Positions 1 to 21,514 of a stretch of 36,173 bases of DNA are shown here, piece by piece (the stretch's first letter is position 1; each line of letters starts with the position of its first letter). Where the stretch lies: the NCBI GenBank assembly GCA_041640655.1, contig JBEPZV010000026.1, positions 1 to 36,173 on the forward strand, read 5' to 3'. Position numbers and translations under genes: made by a program. The notes beneath the pieces were generated by a model. The model saw only the letters and a program-made list of their open reading frames with translations, was not told where the DNA came from and ran no database searches. The stretch comes from a bacterium. Lineage in GTDB: Bacteria; Acidobacteriota; Blastocatellia; HR10.

Positions 1-2396
1 CGATCCGAGAGGGAGTTGCCGCGATCGCGACGCCGATTGGTCGGGTCCGAGAGTTGGACGTTGCTGTCGAGCACGTTCACCTCGGGCGCGTCGTCAATGG
101 CGTGCGACCAGGTGTAGGAGGCGGTGAACTGATACCCGCGCGAGAAGCGCTTGATCAGTTGCACGGTGACGCCATTGTAGTTGGAGTTCCCCACGGATTC
201 GGCGAGGAAGACGTTGTCGAAGTCGGGGAAGCGTCGCGTCTGCGGATTCACTGCCGTGTCGAAGACCGGTCGCCCATCGGCCAGGGTCCGGATCGGGTTG
301 ATCGGGTTGATATTCCGCTGCACGGGAATGCGCGTCCCCTTGGCGAAGACGTAACTGAGAACGACGGACATCTCGGGGGTGAGCGCCCGCTCGATCTGCA
401 GATTCGCGTTGCTCGAATAGAGATTGGCGAAGTCCGGCGCCACGGCGTTGATGCTCACGCGCGGGAGCGGAAAGCCCGCGGGCAACTGATCGAACGTCTG
501 CGGGAAGGCCGGCGCGAAGGGACTCGTCCCCGAGACCGAGATGTCGCGGAAGCGCGGGTTCCCGTTGTTCAGGAGCGCGAGCCGATAGAAGTCGAGCTTC
601 GGGAAGTCATAGTAGATCCCCGCGCTCGCCCGCACGACCGTCTTGCGCTCCCGTCCGATCCCGTACGAGAGCCCGATGCGCGGCGCGAAGTTGTTCGTGT
701 CTACGTTGAAATCGCGCGAGAGTGGCAGCGGGGCCGTCGGATCCGGATCGGGCACATCATACAGCTCATAGCGCACGCCGTAGAGGAGCTTGAGGTTCTG
801 CGTCACGCGCCAATCGTCCTGCCAGAAGGCCCCCCAGAAGACGGCGCGCTCGCTGATCTCCGGATTCCCGATGCGCTGGCGGAAGGTCGTGTAGCTTCTC
901 GGATTCGTCCCGTTGACGGCGCTCAGGTAGGCATCAATGTTGGGGAAGACGTATTCGGCGAAGAGCGGCTCGCGTCGGAAATCGCCGTAGGTCGTCATCG
1001 CGAATCCGAATTTGAAGGCGTGATTGCCGCGAATGAGCGTGACATTGTCCACAAGGTCCACGCTGGTCTGGCGGAAGCGCTGGCCATCATCGGTCGGTCC
1101 GCCGAACTGCGCCACGCCCGAGATCGTGATGGCCGGGCCGCGGACGGCGTTCTCCGGATTGGCCGTGCGGAAGAAGCGGCGCCGCGCGTACTGGAAGCGC
1201 AGCTCGTTGATGGCGCGTGAGGAGATCGTCGAGGTGAGCTGCGTCGCCACCGAATCGGCCGCATCAATGAAATCCGTCGAGCGCGTCACCGAGAGGAGTC
1301 CGGCCGAGAGCGCCCCGCCGATGTTATTCGGCGAGCTGTTGCGGAAGAGGTTGTACCGGGCCATGAGGCGATGGCGCTCGGAGATCGTGTAGTCACTGCG
1401 CGCGATGAAGAAGTTGACCCGTTGCGAGGCCGGGACCACGCCGATCTGCTTCGGCGTCAGTCCGATGCGCGCCGCATTCTCCGGGGTGATGGTGATCGGG
1501 CGCGGGATGTCGCGCCGCGTGAATTCATACGCGCTGAAATAGTGGAGCCGATCGCGTCGGATCGGACCGCCCAGTCGCGCCGTCACCGTATCGGCCGCGA
1601 AATCGGGCTTCGGCTGCGTGGGCGACAACAGCGTGGGGCGCGCCGAGAAGGACTTGCGGCGGAAGCGATACCCGGCCTCTCCATGCACCTCATTCGTCCC
1701 CGAATCGGTGATGGCGTTGTAGACGGTCCCCGTCGTCGTCCCGAACTCCGGAGCGAAGCCGTTGTTGACGACCTGGATCTCGCGGATGAAGACTTCCGAG
1801 ATCGGCATCAAGCGAATGCCCGCGCGATCGGCCTGCGTGTTCGTATTGCCGTCCAGTTGGTAGTTGATCCGGTCAATGAACCCGTTCGTGTTCACCTTGC
1901 GAGGCACGCCGAATTCGGGATTGGGGCGCGCGCTCACCCCCGGCTGCAGGAGCATGAAGTTGTAGATGTTGCGCGAGACCAGGGGCAGGTTCCGCACCTC
2001 TTGCGTCGAGATCGTGTTCCCGTGCTCGATCTTCCCGATATCGGCCACGGGGACATCGGCCGTGACCGTCACCGCTTGCTCGATCTGTCCGACCTCCAGC
2101 GTGAAATCCACGACGGCCGTTCGCCCGGCCGTGAGGACGATGCCCGAGCGCACGGCGCGTTTGAAGCCCGCAGCTTCCACGCTGATCTCATAGCGACCCA
2201 GTGGCAGAAGCGTCGCGCGGTAAAATCCGCGCTCGTTCGTCGTCAGCGTTCGGGCGTAGCCCGTGTCCATATTGACGATGCGCACGGTGGCGCCGGCGAC
2301 GACCGCTCCCGAAGGGTCCAGGACGATCCCCTCGATGACGCCGTCGGTCGCCTGCGCCTGCACGAGCAGCAACATCGCCAGAACGATGCTCTTCAT
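1..2396 (-). CDS. TonB-dependent receptor, Oar-like, with N-terminal carboxypeptidase-regulatory-like domain (partial, runs off the window start)
   Basis: Absent from the ORF track because no stop lies in the window. My translation from ATG 2396 (RBS AAGGAGG): MKSIVLAMLLLVQAQATDGVIEGIVLDPSGAVVAGATVRIVNMDTGYARTLTTNERGFY...LPLGRYEISVEAAGFK...VDFTLEVG...VRNLPLVSRNIYNFMLLQPGV...NYQLDG...APEFG...N(F)APRIGLSY. This is a signal peptide, CarboxypepD_reg domain, plug and barrel, typical of Acidobacteria receptors. Confidence 0.9.
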   Translation of the reverse strand, partial: MKSIVLAMLLLVQAQATDGVIEGIVLDPSGAVVAGATVRIVNMDTGYARTLTTNERGFYRATLLPLGRYEISVEAAGFKRAVRSGIVLTAGRTAVVDFTLEVGQIEQAVTVTADVPVADIGKIEHGNTISTQEVRNLPLVSRNIYNFMLLQPGVSARPNPEFGVPRKVNTNGFIDRINYQLDGNTNTQADRAGIRLMPISEVFIREIQVVNNGFAPEFGTTTGTVYNAITDSGTNEVHGEAGYRFRRKSFSARPTLLSPTQPKPDFAADTVTARLGGPIRRDRLHYFSAYEFTRRDIPRPITITPENAARIGLTPKQIGVVPASQRVNFFIARSDYTISERHRLMARYNLFRNSSPNNIGGALSAGLLSVTRSTDFIDAADSVATQLTSTISSRAINELRFQYARRRFFRTANPENAVRGPAITISGVAQFGGPTDDGQRFRQTSVDLVDNVTLIRGNHAFKFGFAMTTYGDFRREPLFAEYVFPNIDAYLSAVNGTNPRSYTTFRQRIGNPEISERAVFWGAFWQDDWRVTQNLKLLYGVRYELYDVPDPDPTAPLPLSRDFNVDTNNFAPRIGLSYGIGRERKTVVRASAGIYYDFPKLDFYRLALLNNGNPRFRDISVSGTSPFAPAFPQTFDQLPAGFPLPRVSINAVAPDFANLYSSNANLQIERALTPEMSVVLSYVFAKGTRIPVQRNINPINPIRTLADGRPVFDTAVNPQTRRFPDFDNVFLAESVGNSNYNGVTVQLIKRFSRGYQFTASYTWSHAIDDAPEVNVLDSNVQLSDPTNRRRDRGNSLSD

Positions 2397-2410
2397 AGCC
2401 CCCTCCTTTG

Positions 2411-3589
2411 TTAAAGCCGCGCGACCAAATCGGCGAGTTGTCGTTCGACCAGTTGCAACGCCGAGAAGATCGCCCCGTAGAGTTGCGCGCGATCCTCCAG
2501 GGCCGAGACGACGACCGCCGGTTTGGCCGGAACGGTTCGCGCGATGGTCTCACGAATGGGCTCGGTGAGAAGCTCTCCCGCCAAGCTCACACCTCCCCCG
2601 AGCACGATCATCTCCGGATCTAAGAGCGTGGCCACGTTCGCCGCGGCCGCACTGATGTAGGCCGCGATTTCATCCACGAGCCGTCGGGCCGTCTCGTCAC
2701 CCCGACGGGCCGCCTCGAAGACCGCCTTGGCGTCCGGGGCACGGGATCGCCCCAGGAGCTGGCGGGCGCGCGCCGCCATCGCCGGTCCGGAGGCGCGCAT
2801 CTCCAGAAATCCCAGCTCGCGGAATTCCTCGCGAATCGCCTTCGGATCGAGGAGCATGTACCCGACTTCTCCGGCGGCGTGCGTCGAGCCGCGATAGAGT
2901 TCCCCGTTGATGAGCAGGCCCGCTCCGATTCCCGCGCCGATGGCGATGAAGGCGACGTTTCGGAGCCCTCGCGCGGCTCCGCGCCAGCTCTCGCCCAGCA
3001 CGGCCATGTTCACATCGTTATCCACGTGGACGGGGAGGCGCAGCGCGCTCTCCATCAGCTCGCGGAGCGGGACATCGCGCCAGCCCGGGAGATTCGGGGC
3101 ATGGCGAACGATCCCGCGCTCCACGTCGGTGATGCCGGGAGCACCGATGGCCAGCAGTCGCACATCGCGCCAGCGCACGCCGGCCGTCTTCACCACCTGA
3201 CGGCTGAGCGTCGCGATCTGCGCGACGATGGTGCGGACATAGGGCGGAGACTTCCGCGTCGGCTCCTCCGCGTGCGCGAGGAGATCGCCGTTGAGATCGG
3301 CCACCGCGACGCGCACGCGCGTCCCTCCGATGTCGGCGCCGAGCACATATCCGAAGCGCGCGTTGAAGCGCAGCAGCGTCGGGCGACGCCCACCGCTGGA
3401 GTCCCCGACGCCCTCTTCTCGCAAGAGTCCCGCGCGCAGCAGCTTCGCCACCAGGGCCGAGACCGTCGGCGGACTCAGCCCCGAGCGGCGCGCCAGCTCG
3501 GCGCGCGAGATCACCCCCGAGGCGCGCGCCAGCCGCAACAGCGCGAGCATGTTCAGTTGCTTGAGGAGTCCGTGATTGGCCGGCCCCAT
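2411..3589 (-). CDS. ROK-family transcriptional repressor (XylR/NagC-like)
   Basis: N-terminal wHTH (ISRAELARRSGLSPPTVS...GGRRP) and ROK sugar-binding motifs (GADIGGT, DNDVN, GIGAG, AGEVGY). Start placed at MGPANH (GGAGG upstream), downstream of the predicted promoter; the ORF track extends to 3769. Confidence 0.9.
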   Translation of the reverse strand: MGPANHGLLKQLNMLALLRLARASGVISRAELARRSGLSPPTVSALVAKLLRAGLLREEGVGDSSGGRRPTLLRFNARFGYVLGADIGGTRVRVAVADLNGDLLAHAEEPTRKSPPYVRTIVAQIATLSRQVVKTAGVRWRDVRLLAIGAPGITDVERGIVRHAPNLPGWRDVPLRELMESALRLPVHVDNDVNMAVLGESWRGAARGLRNVAFIAIGAGIGAGLLINGELYRGSTHAAGEVGYMLLDPKAIREEFRELGFLEMRASGPAMAARARQLLGRSRAPDAKAVFEAARRGDETARRLVDEIAAYISAAAANVATLLDPEMIVLGGGVSLAGELLTEPIRETIARTVPAKPAVVVSALEDRAQLYGAIFSALQLVERQLADLVARL

Positions 3590-3626
3590 CGCCTCCGCCG
3601 CCTGCGTGTGCCCGTGCCCGTCCATG

Positions 3627-3669
3627 ACTTTGTTCGGGAACATAATAAACTTTTCCTCGCCCATGTCAA
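3627..3669 (-). promoter_or_regulatory. Sigma70 promoter (TTGACA-16-TATTAT) overlapped by a 25-bp ROK/XylR-like operator
   Basis: TTGACA at 3669-3664 and TATTAT at 3647-3642. The imperfect palindrome ACTTTGTT-CGGGAACAT-AATAAACT at 3627-3651 covers the -10 and start region. Confidence 0.6.
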
Positions 3670-3724
3670 GCCCGGATCGGCGCAGCCCGATCAGGGGAAT
3701 GGCCACCTTGAGGAGTGGGCGGAA

Positions 3725-3785
3725 GAGGCGGAGCGTGACGCCGTCTGCACGAACGCGGCGTGCGACCACACGGATGGGCCGCCCC
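3725..3785 (+). repeat. 61-bp direct repeat, copy 1 (left flank of hairpin array)
   Basis: 53/61 identical to 4439-4499 by manual alignment. Confidence 0.85.
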
Positions 3786-4435
3786 CTTCGGGGGCTTGGG
3801 GATGATCATGCCGCCGTTGTCCTAGGGCTCGCCTGCGGCTCGCCCTAGGCTAGATTCGCACGCCTGCTTCGCAGGCTTGATACGGAAGACGCCGTCATCA
3901 AATGGGCTCGTCTTTGGCTCGCCCTGGGCTAGATTCGCACGCCCGCTCGCGCGGGCTTTGTGTGGGCGCGACCCAACTCTCGTTGTGAGATCAACCCAAT
4001 TCCGTGAGCCCGCCCGCGCGGGCGACCGAATGCAGCCCGGAGCGAGCGAAGCGAGCCCACGTTGTGAAACCGATCCCCTTCCACATGCGAGCCCGCGAAG
4101 CGGGCGTTCGAGTTCGGCCCGGGGCGAGCGGAGCGAACCCACGTTGTGAAACCAATCCAATTCCGCATGTGAGCCTCCGAAGGGGGCGACCGAATGTAGC
4201 CCGGGGCGATCGCGAGCGAGCCCAAGGTGTGAGTCAACCCCATTCCGCATGCGAGCCCGCGAAGCGGGCGACCGAAATTAGCCTAGGGCGAGCGAAGCGA
4301 GCATCATAAGATCACCCCCCTTCCACAGGCGAGCCCCCGAAAGGGGCGTTCGAATTTAGCCTAGGGCGAGCGAAGCGAGCCCTAGGAACGAGAGGCCCCA
4401 ACCAATGTCCAAGCCCGCGCACGCGGGCGGCCCAT
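3774..4435. repeat. REP/BIME-like array of double-hairpin repeats, ~81-bp period, 3 inverted plus 6 direct copies
   Basis: Core AGCCCGC-GAA-GCGGGCG..CGAA..TAGCCTAGGGCGAGCGAAGCGAGCCC. Plus-strand copies start near 4007, 4090, 4172, 4254, 4332 and 4412 (last one partial). Minus-strand copies end at 3796 (partial), 3877 and 3957. Confidence 0.85.
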
Positions 4436-4438
4436 GTG

Positions 4439-4499
4439 GAGGCGGAACGTGACGCCGTCCCCACGAACGCACCGTGCGACCGCGCGAATGGGCCGCCCC
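4439..4499 (+). repeat. 61-bp direct repeat, copy 2 (right flank of hairpin array)
   Basis: 53/61 identical to 3725-3785. Confidence 0.85.
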
Positions 4500-4531
4500 A
4501 TCGCGGACCGGAGGCTCCCCCTCACCCCCGC

Positions 4532-6445
4532 TCATGGACAGCCACAGCCCGGCGGCGTATTCGCCAGATTCTGGTCAACGATCGAGAAGATTCGCGTGGG
4601 CGGAGACACCCTCAACGCTGCCGTGCCCCTTTGCATGGTCAGAAGAATCAACCCCTGCATCAGGTTCCCACCGACATTCCGGAAAGCGATGTACCCACTA
4701 CCCGACTGCAATGAGAACTGGCCCGTGAAGGTCCCCGCCGAGGTCACAAAGCAATAGGTGTTGTTGGTTCTCAACTCCAGACAGTTGCCACTGCCCAGAT
4801 CATCACGGAGCGTGAAAAGCAGCGGTGGACCTGACGGCGGCGCTTCAAAAGCCCCCGCATCGCACAAGGGCCCTTGCGGGCGGCTCACCCCCCGCTGGTC
4901 GGTGCTGACCGGGCTACTACTCAAATCCGTGCAGTCCGTGACCGCATCAATGGCGGAACTGCCCGAGCCCAGCGCGTGGGTCTCGGTGGGTCCGCCGTTG
5001 TTGGCCAGGGGCTGGAGGTTGAGCTGGGGAGAGGTGACCTGCGTGAAGCCCGTACAGCTTCCGTCCGTCGCCAGGTTCGCGCCGGTGGCGTTGAAGGTAC
5101 CGCCCGCAAGCGAACAATTCGCGCCGGTCGGCGCGGTGTTATTGCCCACGATCGAGTTTTTGATGTTGAAGATGCCGGAGATGACTCTTATCCCCCCCGC
5201 GCCTGACGTACCTGCGGAGTTATTGGCAATGGTGACGAAACTGGCATTCACCGTGCCCGCGTTCCAGATGCCGCCAACGTCATCTGAACCGGTACCGCTG
5301 CTATTGCCCGAAATCGTCGTATTGGTGAGATTGAGCGTGCCAGAATTATCAATAGCCCCGCCATCATCGGCGCTGGTATTTCCCGACAGCGTGCTGCCCG
5401 TGATGGTCACCGTGCCGCCTAAGGCGTTGCCGATACCGCCGCCGAAGCTGAGGGCGCTATTTCCCGAGATAGTGCTGTTGGTGATGGTCACCGTGCCGCG
5501 GAAATTGTCGATGCCGCCGCCGACGTCGGCGCTATTTCCCATGAGCGTGCTACCTGTGATGGTCACCGTGCCGACGAAGTTGTAGATGCCGCCGCCGACG
5601 TCGTCGGCGCTATTTCCCATGAGCGTGCTACCCGTGATGGTCACCGTGGCGCCATTGTTGAAGATGCCGCCGCCGGAGTCGTCGGTGCCAGAACCATCCG
5701 CGCAGCCGTTTCGCACCGTCACGTTTTGCAGCGTGAGGTTGCCTCCGCCCTGCACATGGAAGATGCGGAATTCGTTCTGCTCAGCATTGCCGTCGAGGTC
5801 GCATCCGAACCCCATTCCTGTGCTCCGCTGGATCGTCGCCCCGTTGCCTTCAATGGTGATCTGGCTCGTGATGTCCAGATCGTCATTGTTCGCCCCGGAG
5901 TCGGTGGCATGCCCTCCCCCGTCGGCGTCGAGCGAGAGCGTGTAGGTCTCGCCCGACTGAAGGACGATGGTGTGAGGGCCGCCTCCCAGGGCGTTGGCCT
6001 CCATGATCGCTGCACGTAGCGTGCATGTGTGGACAAAGATTGTCACATCCCCTTCAGAAATCGTATATATAGCCTCACATTTACCATCCCCTGGATTAGA
6101 ATCTATAAGGTCTCCTCCAAATGGAGGCTCGAGGCCTCCCAACCTATCGTTCGGGCACGGGTTGAAGGGCTCGACATCTGGCCAGTCCGCTCCGCACCGC
6201 GCAATCACATGTTGCTCGAATTGCTGCTGCTCAAAGCTATCAATCCCTCCCGGCCAGGCGTGACTCACCGGTTCCATAAGCACAAGCACGCCCACCAGCG
6301 CCCTCTTCGCCAAACACTTTCTTTCGCTATCTGCCGCCGAAGATTTCCCCATTGCCCTCATGTCCATTACCCACCTTCCTGTTAAAAGTCTCGCCAGAAA
6401 ATTTCCTCTTAGAATCAGCTTTGACCACGGTGCGTGTTTTGGCAT
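4532..6445 (-). CDS. Secreted/surface beta-helix protein with CSLREA-like domain, GGGI (polymorphic-membrane-type) repeats and choice-of-anchor Q-like domain
   Basis: DSNPGDGKC...CTLRAAIMEANA (CSLREA-type), repeated GGGIxNxxGTVTITxSTxxGNSA, and PLANNGGPTETHALGSGSSAIDA...DQRGVSRPQGPLCDAGAFE (choice-of-anchor Q-type). RBS AAGGAGGT before ATG 6445. Confidence 0.8.
   Translation of the reverse strand: MPKHAPWSKLILRGNFLARLLTGRWVMDMRAMGKSSAADSERKCLAKRALVGVLVLMEPVSHAWPGGIDSFEQQQFEQHVIARCGADWPDVEPFNPCPNDRLGGLEPPFGGDLIDSNPGDGKCEAIYTISEGDVTIFVHTCTLRAAIMEANALGGGPHTIVLQSGETYTLSLDADGGGHATDSGANNDDLDITSQITIEGNGATIQRSTGMGFGCDLDGNAEQNEFRIFHVQGGGNLTLQNVTVRNGCADGSGTDDSGGGIFNNGATVTITGSTLMGNSADDVGGGIYNFVGTVTITGSTLMGNSADVGGGIDNFRGTVTITNSTISGNSALSFGGGIGNALGGTVTITGSTLSGNTSADDGGAIDNSGTLNLTNTTISGNSSGTGSDDVGGIWNAGTVNASFVTIANNSAGTSGAGGIRVISGIFNIKNSIVGNNTAPTGANCSLAGGTFNATGANLATDGSCTGFTQVTSPQLNLQPLANNGGPTETHALGSGSSAIDAVTDCTDLSSSPVSTDQRGVSRPQGPLCDAGAFEAPPSGPPLLFTLRDDLGSGNCLELRTNNTYCFVTSAGTFTGQFSLQSGSGYIAFRNVGGNLMQGLILLTMQRGTAALRVSPPTRIFSIVDQNLANTPPGCGCP
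5390..5672 (-). repeat. Intragenic tandem repeats (~75-81 bp) encoding beta-helix rungs
   Basis: The units starting at 5511 and 5586 are nearly identical in DNA (ATGCCGCCGCCGACGTC...GCGCTATTTCCCATGAGCGTGCTACC.GTGATGGTCACCGTG). GTGATGGTCACCGTG occurs four times. Confidence 0.8.
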
Positions 6446-6472
6446 ACTTTCTCACCTCCTTATTTTTGAAGT

Positions 6473-7255
6473 TTACTCGATTGACAGCAAAGTCTGACGA
6501 CCTACCGCTCGAAGGAAACTTTCCCTCTCTATCCTTCTCACAGAAGCCATTGCCCTCGCTCTCACGGGCTCTTCCAGAAAATCAAACTCCGGCTTTATAG
6601 TGCCGTTGTCCTCGACTTTTAACATGAACGCCGCTACTGCAAAGATCAGAGACTCGCCCTTGTGCCTTACGGCCAGTACTGTATCTTCGTGCCACCCGAT
6701 GTCGAGTTCGAAGTCCGGAGAAGTTTTCGCTTTAAGAATTTTTAGAAGCTCCCCAGTTATTTTCACGGCATTTCCCTGGCTGTGGTAAAAGCTGATGTTT
6801 ATCTCCCTGGCTCTCAGTTCCCCTGAGACGAAGAAGAGTTTTTTAATGTCGCGGGATTTCGCTTTACACGCCTTCAGTGCGGTGCTGGCGGGCAGGTAAT
6901 CAACCCCTCGGGACGTTACTGTCCCAAACCCGAAGGACACTTTGTCGGTACCCTTGATGATCATCCCTATGCTCGCTTGGAAGACCCGATTCAGGATAGG
7001 AGCAGCAATATCCAGACCGACCTTGTCCGTGAGATACCCAGAAACCTCCGGATGAATACCTTCATTCGGACTTCGTAACAGGCGGTCTATGCCATTGTCT
7101 GGGCAGTGGGCCAAGTCTTTGACGGTACCTATGCGGCGCCACTTGCCGTCAACCTTTGCGAGCAAGACACCCAGCAGGCTGCCGGATGTGGCCAGTTTTA
7201 GGGGAGCATAGCCAAGGTCATTGAGAAACTTTGTGAAAGGGTCTTTGCAGATCAT
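6473..7255 (-). CDS. Bacterial gasdermin-like pore-forming protein (bGSDM)
   Basis: 260 aa. N-terminus MICKDPFTKFLNDLGY fits the bGSDM pattern M-x-C-x-D-P-F-x3-L-x3-G-Y with Cys3. Colinear blocks IAAPILNRVFQ, FFVSGELRAREINISF and LIFAVAAFMLKVEDNG resemble the Runella bGSDM as I recall it. Short C-terminal tail; RBS AAAGGAGGT. Confidence 0.8.
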   Translation of the reverse strand: MICKDPFTKFLNDLGYAPLKLATSGSLLGVLLAKVDGKWRRIGTVKDLAHCPDNGIDRLLRSPNEGIHPEVSGYLTDKVGLDIAAPILNRVFQASIGMIIKGTDKVSFGFGTVTSRGVDYLPASTALKACKAKSRDIKKLFFVSGELRAREINISFYHSQGNAVKITGELLKILKAKTSPDFELDIGWHEDTVLAVRHKGESLIFAVAAFMLKVEDNGTIKPEFDFLEEPVRARAMASVRRIERESFLRAVGRQTLLSIE

Positions 7256-7377
7256 CCTGGACCTCCTTTCGGTTTGTTATGGCTTTTCAAACAGGCTCGC
7301 GTCAGGAGAAAGATCACCAGGTAGGCCAACCAAAGAGCCAGGCCGACCCCCACCACGATGCCGACGGATTTATCCAT
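7252..7377 (-). CDS. Small single-pass membrane peptide (41 aa), translationally coupled to the gasdermin
   Basis: Below the ORF-track cutoff. MDKSVGIVVGVGLALWLAYLVIFLLTRACLKSHNKPKGGPG*: a ~21-aa hydrophobic stretch then a basic tail. GAAGGA upstream; stop overlaps the gasdermin start (ATGA). Confidence 0.55.
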   Translation of the reverse strand: MDKSVGIVVGVGLALWLAYLVIFLLTRACLKSHNKPKGGPG

Positions 7378-7867
7378 GCCGGATATCCTTCACCTGTTCC
7401 GCCTCTGGTGGACCGACGTCGCCGACGCTGTCGTTGCAGTCGCCGGCCTCAAAACGGTCCCCGAAATTTTTCGCCTTCGCCGGGATCATCGGAAACTCCC
7501 GGCCTTTCGGTTTTCGGATCCATCGTCAAGATTAAGATTGCCTCTGGGCCGGGAGAGCAATAATTCCTCCGGACGGTATAGACATCCCTCGACCGAGGCA
7601 AGAGCTCATCGGCTCCCGGGAACGTCGTCCTCACCAGCTATGGCGCTTGGGCTGCCCCTGAGCAAGCTTTGTCAGAGCCGCGTGCGTTCTGGCGTTCGCT
7701 CCCTCACCACCAGGGCAACGTCCGCATGAGCGGCGGCACAGACTCCGGCGTCGGAGTCCCTCGACACCCTCAAGGACCTTCGCTCATTGTTTGTTTCAGA
7801 TGGAATTTTGCAGGGGCGTCACCCATCATGTCCTCCCTCGATGAGTTTCGACCACCCGACGGCGCCT

Positions 7868-7898
7868 ATTTTGCCCTTTTTTTTTTTCGCCCTGTCAA
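7868..7898 (-). promoter_or_regulatory. Putative sigma70 promoter with A11 homopolymer in a 19-nt spacer
   Basis: Minus strand: TTGACA-GGGCG-A11-GGG-CAAAAT, pointing toward the gasdermin operon. Confidence 0.45.
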
Positions 7899-8016
7899 GA
7901 GGAAAATTTCCAGACCAGTGCGGCGCCCGGCCGCCTTGGACGAACGCGCGGCGCCCGGAGATGGCGAAGGGGTGCGCTTTACAACGGGGGGCGACTCGAT
8001 TTACCATGCCGGAGGT

Positions 8017-9453
8017 ATGACGAAGGTGGGCATGGTCAGTCTCGGCTGTCCGAAGAATCTCGTGGACAGCGAGGTCATGCTGGGGCTGCTCGTGCGCGAG
8101 GGGTTCGCGCTCACGACGGAAGCGGCCGAGGCCGATATCCTCATCGTGAACACGTGCGCCTTCATTGATCCGGCCAAGATGGAATCCATCGAGACGATCC
8201 TCGAAATGGCGCGCTGGAAGGCGCACGGGCGCTGCCGCAAGCTCATCGTCACCGGCTGCCTGGCCGAGCGCTATCGCGAGCACCTGCAGCGGGAGTTGCC
8301 CGAGGTGGATGCGCTCGTCGGGACGCGAGAGATCGAGCGCATCGTCGAAGTGTGCCGCGACGGCGAGCGGGGAACGACGACCCGATCGCGACGTCGCCTT
8401 CCGATCCTCCCCCTGGCGCTCGCCTCTCGGTACGTGGAGGATGCGGCGCGTCCGCGTGTGCTGGCGACGCCGCCCTTCTCGGCGTATCTCAAGATCGCCG
8501 AGGGGTGCGATCACACGTGTTCCTTCTGCATCATCCCGACGCTGCGCGGGCCGTTTCGCAGCCGTCCCCTGGAATCCTTGCTTCGAGAGGCGGAGGCCCT
8601 GGCCGCGCGCGGCGTTCGCGAGCTGATCCTCATCGCGCAGGACACGACGCATTACGGTGCGGACTTGGGGATGAAGGAGGGCTTGGCCGCGCTCCTGCGG
8701 GCGCTGGCGCGGATTGAGGGGATTCGATGGATTCGCTTCCTCTACGGCTATCCGAATCACGTGAGCGAGGCGGTGATCGAAGCCGTCGCTTCCGAGGAGA
8801 AGGTGTGCGCCTACTTCGATATCCCCTTTCAGCACGCGAGCGCGCGTCTGTTGCGCCTCATGCGTCGAGGGGGGACGCGTCGCTCGTTCGAACGTCTCGT
8901 GGAGCGGATCCGGCGCCGTATCCCGGACGCGACGCTGCGGACCACGTTCATCATTGGATTCCCCGGGGAGACGGAGCGCGATTTTCGCGAGCTGCTCGAC
9001 TTCTGCCGGACCGTCGAGTTCGACTACGCGGGAGCATTCCTCTACTCGGATGAGGAGGGGACGGCGGCCTTTGGCTTGACCGCGAAGGTGTCTCGGGAGG
9101 TCGCGCGCGAGCGCTTGAGACGGTTTCAGCGCGAGCAAGCGCGTATCGCTTCTCGGCGGAGCCGTCGGTGGATCGGCCGAACGGTCGAGGTTCTGGTGGA
9201 GGGGAGCGTCGAGGGGGAGGCTTCCGATCGTCGTCCGCGCGCTTCTCCGAGGCCGCCTCTGCTGCGGGGGCGGATGGCCGGACAAGCGCCGGAGATTGAT
9301 GGCCGCGTGATCCTCGATCCGGGGGATGGGGTAGAATCGGCCCTGGAGCCACGACTTCCTCAGCCGGGGGAATTCGTCTCGGTCGAGATCGTGGACGCCA
9401 TCGGGTGTGATCTGATCGGGCGGGTGTGCGCGCCCGGGGAGGCTTCGCGATGA
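8017..9453 (+). CDS. rimO: Ribosomal protein S12 methylthiotransferase RimO
   Basis: SLGCPKNLVDSE, VNTCAFID, YLKIAEGCDHTCSFCIIP radical SAM motif, C-terminal TRAM (APEIDG). GGAGGT RBS before ATG 8017. Confidence 0.95.
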   Translation: MTKVGMVSLGCPKNLVDSEVMLGLLVREGFALTTEAAEADILIVNTCAFIDPAKMESIETILEMARWKAHGRCRKLIVTGCLAERYREHLQRELPEVDALVGTREIERIVEVCRDGERGTTTRSRRRLPILPLALASRYVEDAARPRVLATPPFSAYLKIAEGCDHTCSFCIIPTLRGPFRSRPLESLLREAEALAARGVRELILIAQDTTHYGADLGMKEGLAALLRALARIEGIRWIRFLYGYPNHVSEAVIEAVASEEKVCAYFDIPFQHASARLLRLMRRGGTRRSFERLVERIRRRIPDATLRTTFIIGFPGETERDFRELLDFCRTVEFDYAGAFLYSDEEGTAAFGLTAKVSREVARERLRRFQREQARIASRRSRRWIGRTVEVLVEGSVEGEASDRRPRASPRPPLLRGRMAGQAPEIDGRVILDPGDGVESALEPRLPQPGEFVSVEIVDAIGCDLIGRVCAPGEASR

Positions 9454-10034
9454 ACATGCGCGCGGCTGTTGCGAGCCTCGCTCACGTTCGGCGTCTCTCC
9501 GAAGGCGGCACGGCATCTCTGGCCGATCGCGTTGCGTGGTGGATCGCCGCCGGTGGGGGAGCCGGTCTGGCGCCGATCGCTCCCGGGACAGTTGGGGCTC
9601 TTCTGGGACTCGGACTCTTCGCGCTTGGCTCCTGGTTCGAGCGCGCGCTGGGCGTCGTTGGGGTGAGCTGGATCATCGCCGGTGTTCTCTTGGGCGTTGG
9701 CACGTGGGCGTCTTCCCGAGTGGTGCGGCTCTCGGGAATGGCGGATCCTCCGCAGATCGTGGTGGACGAGATCGTCGGTCAGTTCCTCGCGCTGCTCTTG
9801 AGCGTCGGTGGTCGTGCCCTCTTGCGAGGAGCCAGCGAAGGATCGGTGTCGTGGCCGGGATGGGGGATGCTGTGGGCGAGCTTCGGACTCTTTCGCCTCT
9901 TCGACATCTGGAAGCCGTATCCCATTCGGCGAGTTGAACGGTGGAAGGGGGGGATGGGGGTCATGGCGGATGATGTGTTGGCGGGGATCTGCGCGGGACT
10001 CGCGACCGTTCTCCTAGTCGAGATCATCCCGTGA
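9450..10034 (+). CDS. pgpA: Phosphatidylglycerophosphatase A
   Basis: G-x-A-P-x-APGTVG, DPPQIVVDEIVG, FRLFDIWKPYPI and GVMADDVLAG motifs. ATGA overlap with rimO. Confidence 0.93.
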   Translation: MNMRAAVASLAHVRRLSEGGTASLADRVAWWIAAGGGAGLAPIAPGTVGALLGLGLFALGSWFERALGVVGVSWIIAGVLLGVGTWASSRVVRLSGMADPPQIVVDEIVGQFLALLLSVGGRALLRGASEGSVSWPGWGMLWASFGLFRLFDIWKPYPIRRVERWKGGMGVMADDVLAGICAGLATVLLVEIIP

Positions 10035-16945: not shown

Positions 16946-17968
16946 TCAGTCCTTCAACGCCCGAATCGTCTCTCTCCAGAAGGCTTCATCGTCCAACGGG
17001 CGCGGCGGACGCAGCCCGTAGAAGACTATGCGGTCTGCGATCCCGCGGTATCGCTCGCGAAGCCGTTCGGCGATCTCCTCCGGGGGTGCCACGACGGCAA
17101 AGGTGTGCAGCATCTCCTCGGGGATTGCGTCGGCCAGTTCCGACCATCGTCCGGCAGCCGCCAGGGCGCGCAGCCGATCCGCATGCTCGGCGAAGCCGTG
17201 CAGCTCCAAGAGTACCCGATACGTGGGCGTCGAACCGTAGAAGCCGATCTGCGAGCGGGCGAAATGCCGGCTCTCCGCCCATTCCTCGGGGCCTCGACCG
17301 GAGGCGATGATCACCGTCACCACGATCTCCAGCGCCGAGCGGTCTCGGCCGGCTGCGCGCCATCCGGCTTCCAGCTCCGGCAGCACCAGCTCGCGCACGT
17401 ATCGCTCCGAATGAAGGGGATGCACGTGCACGCCATCGGCCACGCGACCAGCGAGCCGCAGCATCGCCCGGTTCACGGCCGAGATGTAAATGGGCGCATC
17501 GGGGTAGGGATTCGGCTCGGGCGTGAAAAAGGGCGTCATCAACGTCAGGTGATAGTGCTCGCTGCGGAAATTCAAGGGAGTGCCCTCACGCCATGAGGCC
17601 CAGATCGCCCGCACGGCGGCAATGTAGTCGCGCAGCCACGGCACCGGAGCCTTCCAGAAGAGCCCGAATCGGCGCTCGATATGTCCCTTCACCTGACTGC
17701 CAAGCCCCAAAATCATACGCCCCCGCGCCAAACGCTGAAGGTCCCAACCGATATACGCCATGACCATCGGGCTGCGCGGGAAGGCGATCGCTACGGCTGT
17801 CCCCAGCGTGATCCGCTCCGTGTGCTCAGCCGCCAGCGCGATCGCCAGAAACGGATCTCCACCCGTTTCGCCAAACCAAAGACCATCGAAGCCCAATGCT
17901 TCCACACGTCGCGCCAGCGCCGGAACTGCCTCAAGAGGCATTCGCGGGACGATGAGATCAACCTTCAT
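16946..17968 (-). CDS. LLM-class (luciferase-like) oxidoreductase, probably F420-dependent (TIGR03617-like)
   Basis: DPF...AAEHTERITLGTAVAIAFPRSPM...WDLQ...GRMILGLGSQVKGHIERRFG, HYHLTLMTPFF and FYGSTPTY. RBS AGGAGG before GTG/ATG at 17971/17968. Confidence 0.85.
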   Translation of the reverse strand: MKVDLIVPRMPLEAVPALARRVEALGFDGLWFGETGGDPFLAIALAAEHTERITLGTAVAIAFPRSPMVMAYIGWDLQRLARGRMILGLGSQVKGHIERRFGLFWKAPVPWLRDYIAAVRAIWASWREGTPLNFRSEHYHLTLMTPFFTPEPNPYPDAPIYISAVNRAMLRLAGRVADGVHVHPLHSERYVRELVLPELEAGWRAAGRDRSALEIVVTVIIASGRGPEEWAESRHFARSQIGFYGSTPTYRVLLELHGFAEHADRLRALAAAGRWSELADAIPEEMLHTFAVVAPPEEIAERLRERYRGIADRIVFYGLRPPRPLDDEAFWRETIRALKD

Positions 17969-18315
17969 CACAACCCCTCCTGACTTGACGATAGGCCACA
18001 AGCGGCGCATGATACCATGCCATGGTGGTGCGGTCCAAGGGAGAGCGTATGGACGTCCGAAATGCATCTTTTGGGCAAAAATGACCAATTCATTTCGCCA
18101 TGCGTGGGAGTTTTTGTGTCTTCCAGGCCGGAAATTTAGAGGCTCATTGGGGATTAATGTGTCAAAAGTTCCCGTTTGGATGTCCCTCAAGTCGAGGGCG
18201 GTGTCTGGGTAATTGCAGGAAATAGCTTGACTTGGATCAAAAGCGAGCGCAGAGCTTGTGCTTCAGGGCACGGGATTTGCTTAAAGATTCATGTACGCCA
18301 AGAGGGATGGGTTGT

Positions 18316-19395
18316 ATGGGAGCTTCGGGATGGAGGGATGTGTATCAGCGCGTGAGGGCATGGGCGGAGGGGACGTCGTTTGTCCTGGGGATCTTCGGGG
18401 AAGCGATTCGGTCCTGGCGCGAGCTGCGGATGATCGTGAGGGGGTTGCTCTGGACGGATCATGTCGTGTTGGCGCATTTGATCGTGACGCGGCGCTGTAA
18501 TCTCTCCTGCGGCTATTGCAACGAGTACGATCGGGTTTCGGCGCCGGTGCCTGTGGATGTCTTGCGGCGGCGGGTGGACAAGCTGGCGGAGTTGGGGGCG
18601 AGCATTATCACGATCAGTGGGGGAGAGCCGCTCTTGCATCCGGAGTTGGAGGAAGTCATCCGGCACATTCGGCGGCGAGGGATCATCGCCGGGTTGATCA
18701 CGAACGGATATTTGCTCACGCGCGAGCGGATTCGGCGGTTGAATGAAGCGGGGTTGGAATATTTGCAGATCAGCATTGACAACGTGGAGCCGGACGAGGT
18801 GTCGAAGAAGAGCCTGAAGGTGCTTGATCAGAAGCTCGTGTGGTTGAAGGAGTTGGCGCGCTTCAAGGTGAACATCAACACGGTCCTGGGCAGCGGGGTG
18901 CGCAATCCCGAGGATGCGCTGGTGATCGCGCGGCGGGCGGTCGAGCTGGGATTCTCCTGTTCGGTGGGGGTGATTCACGACGAATGGGGGCGGCTGCGAC
19001 CGCTCTCGGAGCGCGAGCGGGAGATCTTCCTGGCCGTGCAGAAGCTCGGGAAGTGGAGCTACAGTCGGGTGAACCGATTCCAGCGGAACCTGGTCGAGGG
19101 CAAGCCCAACCGATGGCGCTGTCGAGCAGGCGCTCGGTATCTCTATGTCTGCGAGGATGGGTTGGTGCACTACTGCTCGCAGCAGCGGGGGTATCCGGGG
19201 GTGCCGCTGGAGACCTACACGCGGGAGGATATGCGGCGGGAGTATTTGACCGAGAAAGCCTGTGCGCCCTACTGCACGATCTCCTGCGTGCAGCAGGTGG
19301 CGGAGTTGGACAACTGGCGCGATCCGCAGACGCTGGGGGTCAAGGTCTGGCGGATGCCAGTCTCTTCGGTGTACGAGGTGCGGCGCGCCGAATGA
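18316..19395 (+). CDS. Radical SAM protein with C-terminal auxiliary Cys (SPASM/twitch-like) domain
   Basis: [24 protein letters not shown], and C-terminal CRAG...VHYC...CAPYCTISC. Start uncertain (18307 or 18316). Confidence 0.88.
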
Positions 19396-19444
19396 GGGCG
19401 GCCGCCCCGGTTCGGGAGGTCTTCACGGAAGGAGGGGACGAGGT

Positions 19445-21514
<2,070 letters not shown>

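Follow-up and report, generated by a model that had tools for sequence, protein, structure and literature searches.

A divergent bacterial gasdermin and its CSLREA-type beta-helix neighbour on an inserted island of an Acidobacteriota genome

The DNA considered here, referred to as the window, is a stretch of 36,173 nucleotides (assembly GCA_041640655.1, contig JBEPZV010000026.1, positions 1 to 36,173) from a bacterium of the Acidobacteriota (Blastocatellia; HR10). The genome carrying it is labelled G000, and the contig C26. On the minus strand, a small hydrophobic open reading frame (ORF) is followed by a gasdermin gene and then by a gene for a large beta-helix protein. An earlier reading, made from the sequence alone (the sequence-only reading), had described three co-oriented, packed genes with an ATGA overlap and a 27-bp gap holding a strong ribosome-binding site, bounded by a repeat array and a divergent rimO. 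All of this is visible in the DNA, the cassette at 4532-7377 being made up as follows:

4532-6445, minus strand: beta-helix gene (637 aa), from the ORF list
6446-6472, minus strand: intergenic spacer of 27 nt with the Shine-Dalgarno sequence AAGGAGG inside, read directly from the sequence
6473-7255, minus strand: gasdermin gene (260 aa), from the ORF list
7252-7377, minus strand: small hydrophobic ORF (41 aa), from the ORF list, gene status uncertain

The ATGA stop/start overlap at 7252-7255 joins the 41-aa ORF to the gasdermin gene. The stretch between the gasdermin and beta-helix genes showed no terminator-like site, and the two are probably co-transcribed. A database protein (P0002), 99% identical to the beta-helix protein, starts at Met27 of the beta-helix ORF; with this start the gap between the two genes would be 105 nt and not 27 nt.

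The middle gene encodes a real gasdermin of a divergent bacterial type, and the name given to it by the sequence-only reading is borne out by both a profile match and the predicted fold. The PADLOC model for bacterial gasdermins (bGSDM, PDLC02986) matched the 260-aa protein with an E-value of 1.5e-18 (65.2 bits), residues 2-220 lying on profile positions 1-223 of 257. An AlphaFold2 (AF2) model built from five sequences (predicted local distance difference test, pLDDT, 73.2; predicted template-modelling score, pTM, 0.72) had the Vitiosangium bGSDM 7n51 as its best Foldseek match (E 6.9e-15, TM-score 0.69), followed by 7n50 (E 1.5e-11) and 7n52 (E 1e-10). These three solved bGSDMs head the list, mammalian and Trichoplax gasdermins come after them, and 8jyv, 8jyw and 8jyz are among the weaker structural matches. 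At the sequence level the relationship is faint: a search of the PDB gave weak matches to the solved Vitiosangium entries 8sl0 and 7n51 (E about 5e-4), and a Pfam search of the gasdermin gave no match. With the NCBIfam equivalog model NF051890 (prok_gasdermin) the protein scored 37.8 bits, missing the cut-off of 100, while four canonical gasdermins of the same phylum scored 206-218 bits.

Sequence searches indicate that the clade to which this gasdermin belongs is very rare and divergent. A HMMER scan of 1.84 billion representative proteins returned four matches at E<=0.001, the only full-length relatives among them being P0001 (68% identity) and P0122 (43%), the latter a Hydrogenobacter thermophilus protein annotated as hypothetical. 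Pfam family PF26164 is precomputed for both. The remaining two matches were left out of the alignments, P0123 because it is a fragment (62 aa) of the window's own gasdermin gene, and P0124 (679 aa, E 1.3e-4), a repeat protein, because it was judged spurious. Word-index searches with the protein and with a three-sequence profile gave no further relatives; a tblastn search of 50,697 phage records and 72,556 plasmids gave no match, and an alignment scan of IMG/VR no relative. A search of 100 relatives of G000 turned up no more than two gasdermins, both distant, and in a sample of 400 genomes of the phylum the bGSDM profile was matched at E<=1e-5 by just two others. P0001 is encoded on two contigs of about 43-46% GC, L022 (4.5 kb, in a metagenome-assembled genome, MAG, labelled Bathyarchaeota, G001) and L024 (a 3.4-kb metagenome contig). 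The Bathyarchaeota assignment of so short a contig may be wrong, and a gasdermin occurred in 0/60 relatives of that MAG.

Downstream of the 68%-identical gasdermin at L024 and L022 come a 20-nt spacer with AAGGAGG and then the gene of a protein with a signal peptide. In L024 this partner passes the cut-off of 25 for CSLREA_Nterm (31.6 bits), the motif being reached at the end of the contig. A CSLREA neighbour thus lies downstream of the gasdermin in both of the clade loci with visible context. By blastn, only positions 6473-7275 of the window (the gasdermin and 20 nt of leader) align to the L024-type locus, at 74%, and the start context and Shine-Dalgarno sequence are conserved. The flanking genes of L022/L024, a gatB-like ORF (identified by reading its translation) and a LuxR-type membrane protein, differ from those of the window. 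Since CSLREA-type genes are rare (about five in G000, with two choice_anch_Q matches, and none detected elsewhere in G001), an adjacency of gasdermin and CSLREA gene by chance would be unlikely, at about 0.2% per genome. The sequence-only reading had proposed looking for recurrence of both the transmembrane peptide and the CSLREA/beta-helix gene beside homologues; the closest homologue, which lies in an unrelated genome, again has the latter at its side but not the former.

Some further observations concern these contigs. L022 (4544 bp) encodes a LuxR/GerE-type membrane regulator, its genes are led by Shine-Dalgarno sequences, and its partner protein has a Sec-type signal peptide. Contig C201 of G001 was considered as a continuation of the L022 partner and rejected, as it carries a different large beta-helix protein (choice_anch_Q, 22.7 bits). 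The ESM Atlas, queried with the N-terminal domain of the L024 partner, yielded no usable match, and a sequence search of the PDB gave only a spurious match to a designed protein.

Four further gasdermin loci detected in this phylum served for comparison, and downstream of the gasdermin they carry:

G137: two CHAT genes
G121: a GH19 gene, then a C14 caspase gene
G474: a TPR-S/Trypsin_2 gene
G176: a Trypsin_2 gene, then a nuclease gene and a TPR-S/S8 gene

In 4/4 of these canonical loci a protease gene lies directly downstream of the gasdermin or one gene further, on the same strand, in agreement with the premise of the sequence-only reading that bGSDMs have an adjacent activating protease. This also means that the search method can find proteases where they occur. 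In the clade of the window, the CSLREA gene fills the slot that the protease has in the canonical loci. Two of the canonical loci have features of their own. At L044 (G121:C486, 1-4100) the GH19 gene, chitinase- or lysozyme-like, stands between the gasdermin and the C14 caspase-like protease. At L046 (G176:C11, 1765-8738) the order is gasdermin, trypsin-like protease, non-specific endonuclease and TPR-S/subtilase, with transposases flanking, an arrangement that recalls the nuclease-protease pairs named in PMC12799240.

The window gasdermin is under purifying selection. Compared with the L024 gene, the ratio of nonsynonymous to synonymous substitution rates (dN/dS) is 0.22 at a dS of 0.88, the lowest dN falling in residues 205-260, and intact full-length ORFs occur in three lineages with 43-68% identity. 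Cys3 is invariant in 3/3 clade members, whereas the other cysteines are not kept across the clade, and the C-terminal tail (about residues 221-260) can be aligned to its counterpart in canonical bGSDMs. Invariant positions make up 62% of residues 1-32 and 57% of the tail (221-260), but 30% of residues 1-220 overall. No signal peptide or secretion-system marker was detected in the gasdermin, and its N-terminus, with Cys3, is of the cytoplasmic bGSDM type. In characterised bGSDMs, according to the preprint of Johnson et al. (10.1101/2021.06.07.447441), the N-terminal cysteine is palmitoylated and together with a C-terminal peptide keeps the protein inactive, and activation is by cleavage in the loop preceding that peptide. 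The conservation of the N-terminus and tail seen in the alignments fits this mechanism. The sequence-only reading had also allowed for a relic whose protease was lost; this is disfavoured by the low dN/dS, the conserved Cys3 and C-terminal tail, and the intact ORFs in three lineages.

The genes around the cassette, and the block in which it lies, are the following:

2411-3686, minus strand: ROK-family regulator/kinase, a flanking core gene (Pfam ROK, E 1.7e-52)
3687-7919 (about), no strand: strain-specific island of 4.2 kb between the ROK gene and rimO, from the congener comparison
3770-4500 (about), no strand: array of repeats of about 80 bp in both orientations, inside the inserted block, from repeat analysis
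7378-7919, no strand: spacer of about 540 bp upstream of the cassette, within the inserted block, without a recognisable gene or RNA family
8017-9453, plus strand: rimO-like radical-SAM methylthiotransferase, a flanking core gene divergent from the cassette (Pfam UPF0004, Radical_SAM and TRAM_2)

The limits of the island were obtained by a DNA search with window positions 2000-10000 in the six other genomes of the genus. In the closest congeners, G063 (94-96% identity) and G066 (92-94%), the segments 2000-3686 and 7920-10000 are contiguous, with an overlap of 5-7 bp, and the junctions were aligned. The ROK gene and rimO are adjacent in the more distant congeners G062, G064 and G065 too; in the sixth congener they are on separate contigs, so that both genes are kept in 6/6 while the gasdermin was found in 0/6. 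Because the ROK gene and rimO are adjacent in 5/6 congeners and none has the gasdermin, positions 3687-7919 represent an insertion of 4.2 kb. Within it lie the three ORFs of the cassette, the repeat array and 540 bp without an assignment. An independent metagenome contig of 437 kb (L023) carries the identical island, with 32 differences over 17,255 bp and none within 3687-7919, which excludes an assembly artefact.

The composition of the block also sets it apart. The GC content at third codon positions (GC3) is 0.54-0.62 in the gasdermin, the small ORF and the 5' part of the beta-helix gene, against 0.74-0.85 in nine host genes; the gasdermin gene itself has a GC of 0.51 and a GC3 of 0.59. Searches revealed neither an integrase nor a tRNA at the island, nor long direct repeats on its flanks. 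The island is horizontally acquired foreign DNA.

The beta-helix gene is compositionally a mosaic, its 5' part looking foreign and its repeat body resembling host genes: GC3 is 0.54 for amino acids 1-150 and 0.78 for amino acids 151-535, and the first 150 codons encode a protein about 85-90% identical to P0006. This split suggests a recombination within the gene, during or after transfer. The protein has a choice_anch_Q match (NCBIfam NF041518) at residues 476-535 (76.7 bits, above the cut-off of 25), while CSLREA_Nterm (TIGR04214) scored 15.4 bits at residues 140-151, under the cut-off of 25, with the second half of the motif alone matching. Its AF2 model (pLDDT 80.7) consists of a hydrophobic helix at 40-55, a region of low confidence at 56-110, a right-handed beta-helix at about 120-535, mostly with pLDDT > 90, and a beta-sandwich at 542-624. 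The signal peptide was judged by eye from the N-terminal hydrophobic helix. The best solved look-alike is Acinetobacter Rhombotarget A (9cdv/9cdu, Foldseek E about 1e-7), followed by tailspikes, the PfbA adhesin and a pectate lyase; the phage tailspikes 5w6f, 6nw9 and 6f7k match at E 2e-4 to 8e-4. Neither family searches nor Foldseek showed a protease-like or signalling domain. From motif and model, the 637-aa protein is predicted to be a secreted right-handed beta-helix surface protein with a CSLREA-type motif. The family is very large, with 4661 of 8000 scored candidates at E<=0.001.

The 41-aa ORF encodes one hydrophobic helix (maximum Kyte-Doolittle value over a 19-residue window, 2.74), has a GC3 of 0.62, and gave no family match over threshold in Pfam, PADLOC, NCBIfam or PHROG. 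Upstream of the L022 gasdermin there is no ORF of at least 20 aa with a hydrophobic stretch, and among six gasdermin loci examined a hydrophobic upstream ORF is present only in the window. The idea that the transmembrane peptide is a recurring partner is therefore not sustained, as none of the five other loci has a counterpart; it is lineage-specific and uncertain as a gene.

A protease gene is missing from the cassette and from the window as a whole. Of the 72 window ORFs of at least 150 aa, 42 were chosen for a Pfam scan, which at E<=1e-5 showed no protease or NLR-type domain, only housekeeping families; the other 30 overlap these 42 in another frame or on the opposite strand and were taken as shadow frames. 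Together with a six-frame search of the whole genome (3.13 Mb in 128 contigs, 89.8% complete), this confirms the statement of the sequence-only reading that the window holds no caspase/CHAT, trypsin, subtilase or NLR-like gene. In that genome-wide search Peptidase_C14 gave no match anywhere, and four CHAT, eight Trypsin_2 and eight Peptidase_S8 matches were all on contigs other than C26. The sequence-only reading had recommended looking for orphan caspase/trypsin-TPR proteases in the genome, and orphan TPR-CHAT, S8 and trypsin-like proteases are present outside the window. The four TPR-CHAT proteins have 958-1328 aa, and the genes of two are each followed by one for an S8 subtilase. TPR-CHAT is an architecture found beside many bGSDMs.

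The two TPR-CHAT/S8 loci (L047, C27:2581-7326, and L049, C30:9783-13898, both in G000) each have a subtilase that carries a fervidolysin-type prodomain, and no gasdermin is near them. DNA of the C30 locus gave only weak partial matches in the four congeners tested, and given these matches this locus may also be accessory. When 31 window ORFs were scanned with PADLOC, no defence gene appeared beside the cassette. The only matches lie 9-11 kb from it, a weak one to an oxidoreductase model (C3a156) at 16946-18190 and partial ones to pVip at 18232-21514. The region 18232-21514 holds two adjacent radical-SAM genes, the second with an HMPTM-type N-terminal zinc ribbon, and the partial matches to the viperin model (pVip) probably reflect the shared radical-SAM core only.

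Other parts of the block and its border were also analysed. The rimO ORF opens at 7669, and its Pfam domains begin only at residue 119, for which reason the true start is placed near 8017. The spacer 7378-7919 had no Rfam match and no sigma-70-like site on the minus strand, and its ORFs 7358-7729 (plus strand) and 7449-7634 (minus strand) had no Pfam or PHROG matches; it may be a promoter, a regulator site or a remnant of the transfer vehicle. The repeat array comprises families D1-D6 plus inverted pairs. The Rfam family Acido-Lenti-1 (RF01687) matched at 4332-4386 on the minus strand (37.2 bits, gathering score 37) and at 3821-3877 on the plus strand (24.4 bits). Dozens of copies occur in G000, G063 and G066, forming a dispersed family of the genus; the sites in G000 include contigs C3, C7, C11, C13, C21, C27, C29, C41, C76 and C92. 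The Acido-Lenti-1-like units of the genus are dispersed in both orientations and resemble a repeat of the repetitive extragenic palindrome (REP) or miniature inverted-repeat transposable element (MITE) type rather than a single small RNA gene.

In relation to known systems, the gasdermin shares with those of the gasdermin-protease systems (Runella, Bradyrhizobium, Vitiosangium, Lysobacter) the fold, a similar size and an N-terminal cysteine, and like them it ends in a short tail where mammalian gasdermins have a large C-terminal domain. Unlike those systems, the window cassette has no adjacent protease and has a CSLREA beta-helix gene in the downstream slot; the gasdermin sequence scores under the NCBIfam cut-off, and no defence island surrounds the cassette. 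All characterised bacterial gasdermins that we know of are activated by a protease encoded alongside. Trichoplax GSDM and Neurospora RCD-1 are eukaryotic gasdermins that act independently of cleavage, through modes that involve a partner allele or a regulatory disulfide. They resemble the window protein in having the gasdermin fold without a dedicated protease, but they are weaker structural matches, and the cysteines of the window clade beyond Cys3 are not conserved. With the CSLREA/choice-of-anchor Q/polymorphic-outer-membrane-protein-like family, including Rhombotarget A (9cdv), the beta-helix protein has in common the choice_anch_Q domain, the motif opening the beta-helix and the signal peptide, whereas the gasdermin neighbour and the foreign-looking 5' part belong to the window gene. 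No member of this family is known to us as a gasdermin partner.

The sequence-only reading had suggested an undescribed architecture, and this stands in part. Johnson et al. (10.1101/2021.06.07.447441) already count 7/50 bGSDMs without an adjacent protease; these likewise have no dedicated neighbouring protease, and they were compared with the window locus by that count alone. On the other hand, a literature search gave no paper combining 'gasdermin' and 'CSLREA', and among the papers on orphan, protease-independent or cleavage-independent bGSDMs none was recognised, from the listings, as describing this architecture.

The explanation preferred here, which is thought to be a little more probable than its opposite, is that the acquired island brings an intact, autoinhibited gasdermin that is cut by a protease encoded elsewhere, with a CSLREA gene in the protease slot. 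The core of the island would be a two-gene unit, the divergent gasdermin followed by a Sec-exported CSLREA/choice-of-anchor-Q beta-helix surface protein. The gasdermin would be cytoplasmic, presumably lipidated at Cys3, and a C-terminal tail of about 35-40 residues would hold it inactive. Removal of the tail would lead to oligomerisation, inner-membrane pores and cell death or lysis. As the island encodes no protease, the cut would have to be made by one encoded elsewhere, and one of the four TPR-CHAT proteins, a subtilase, a trypsin-like protease, a housekeeping protease or a phage protease could act in trans. The beta-helix partner may be a sensor, cargo or passenger.

Several observations weigh against this explanation. 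With NF051890 the clade mates scored 55.7 and 70.8 bits, so that all three members fall below the cut-off of 100; on this ground the window gasdermin is classed as a divergent subfamily and not as the equivalog. The modelled tail (225-260) has a pLDDT < 50, which makes its autoinhibitory packing uncertain. The two partner proteins align around the CSLREA motif only (18/42 identities), the L024 partner being cut by the contig end, and the pairing rests on the thin basis of two lineages that may go back to one ancestral cassette. CHAT proteins occur in 7/7 genomes of the genus, including the six without gasdermin, and are thus not dedicated gasdermin partners. Dependence on a host-specific protease fits poorly with a clade that has passed between hosts of very different kinds; a universal, phage-borne or cassette-carried activator seems for this reason at least as plausible as a host-specific one.

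A wider role for the beta-helix gene has been considered in two forms. In the broader one, a rare gasdermin subfamily passed around among hot-spring bacteria would have swapped its dedicated protease for the secreted CSLREA beta-helix protein, giving an undescribed two-gene cell-death or lysis module triggered by a universal host or phage protease that recognises the well conserved C-terminal tail, or by a signal that needs no cleavage and is linked to the envelope partner; this is regarded as possible, if on the unlikely side. The stricter form, in which the module is self-contained and the secreted protein functionally replaces the protease, appears unlikely. The protein might then be an envelope sensor that relays phage adsorption or envelope damage to the gasdermin, or a cargo or matrix protein freed by gasdermin lysis, with activation either independent of cleavage or by a universal housekeeping protease. 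The placement of the CSLREA gene exactly in the protease position of the canonical loci speaks for such a module, as does its presence at both visible clade loci although no other flank is common to them. The GC3 of the 5' 450 nt of the beta-helix gene is close to that of the gasdermin, suggesting joint arrival; the spread of the clade across phyla favours a travelling or universal activator, and cleavage-independent eukaryotic gasdermins have been solved (8jyv, 8jyw). Against it, the signal-peptide-like N-terminus would put the partner outside the cytoplasm, away from the gasdermin, and neither a protease-like nor a signalling domain was found in it. The N-terminal architectures of the partners differ between the two loci, only two lineages are involved, and the conserved C-terminal tail fits classical proteolytic release.

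That the gasdermin is instead a hitch-hiking or decaying orphan, its protease lost, the beta-helix adjacency meaningless and the cassette neutral cargo, is judged quite improbable. The count of Johnson et al. would agree with it, as would the solitary position of the cassette outside any defence island, its absence from all six congeners and the mosaic beta-helix gene; the dN/dS at a dS of about 0.9, the intact ORFs of three lineages, the conserved start context and Shine-Dalgarno sequence, and a CSLREA neighbour that recurs despite about five such genes per genome do not. A phage or tailocin remnant is a very remote prospect, with the transmembrane peptide as a holin-like protein, the gasdermin as lysis effector and the beta-helix protein as tailspike or depolymerase. 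A small transmembrane ORF, a pore former and a beta-helix in this order are reminiscent of such a module, and the three tailspikes named above are among the structural matches, but the best match is the cellular Rhombotarget A, and a signal peptide with choice-of-anchor Q is typical of cellular surface proteins. Moreover, 0/6 island or partner proteins match PHROG families, the phage, plasmid and IMG/VR searches found nothing, and the island holds no other phage gene. It is just as hard to credit that the gasdermin is an interbacterial or kin weapon delivered to other cells by the surface protein: what speaks for this is solely its co-occurrence with a surface-exposed, adhesin-like protein, whereas the gasdermin has a cytoplasmic-type N-terminus and lacks a signal peptide or secretion-system marker, and the island contains no immunity gene, secretion-system gene or toxin-delivery domain.

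Gasdermins without an adjacent protease are already known; new here are the 4.2-kb insertion, the rare divergent clade, and a CSLREA neighbour that recurs at a second locus. For the control of the minority of gasdermins without a protease neighbour, the island offers a compact and delimited test case, combining a 4.2-kb insertion, a gasdermin under selection, a recurring partner that is not a protease, and few candidate proteases elsewhere in the genome. The results also reveal a divergent gasdermin clade missed by standard annotation, since it lies under the NCBIfam cut-off and its one named relative is called hypothetical. The interest of the locus would rise if the Hydrogenobacter locus had the same partner. 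Should a function be shown for the beta-helix partner, the very large CSLREA/choice-of-anchor-Q family, so far without a function, would gain its first biological context.

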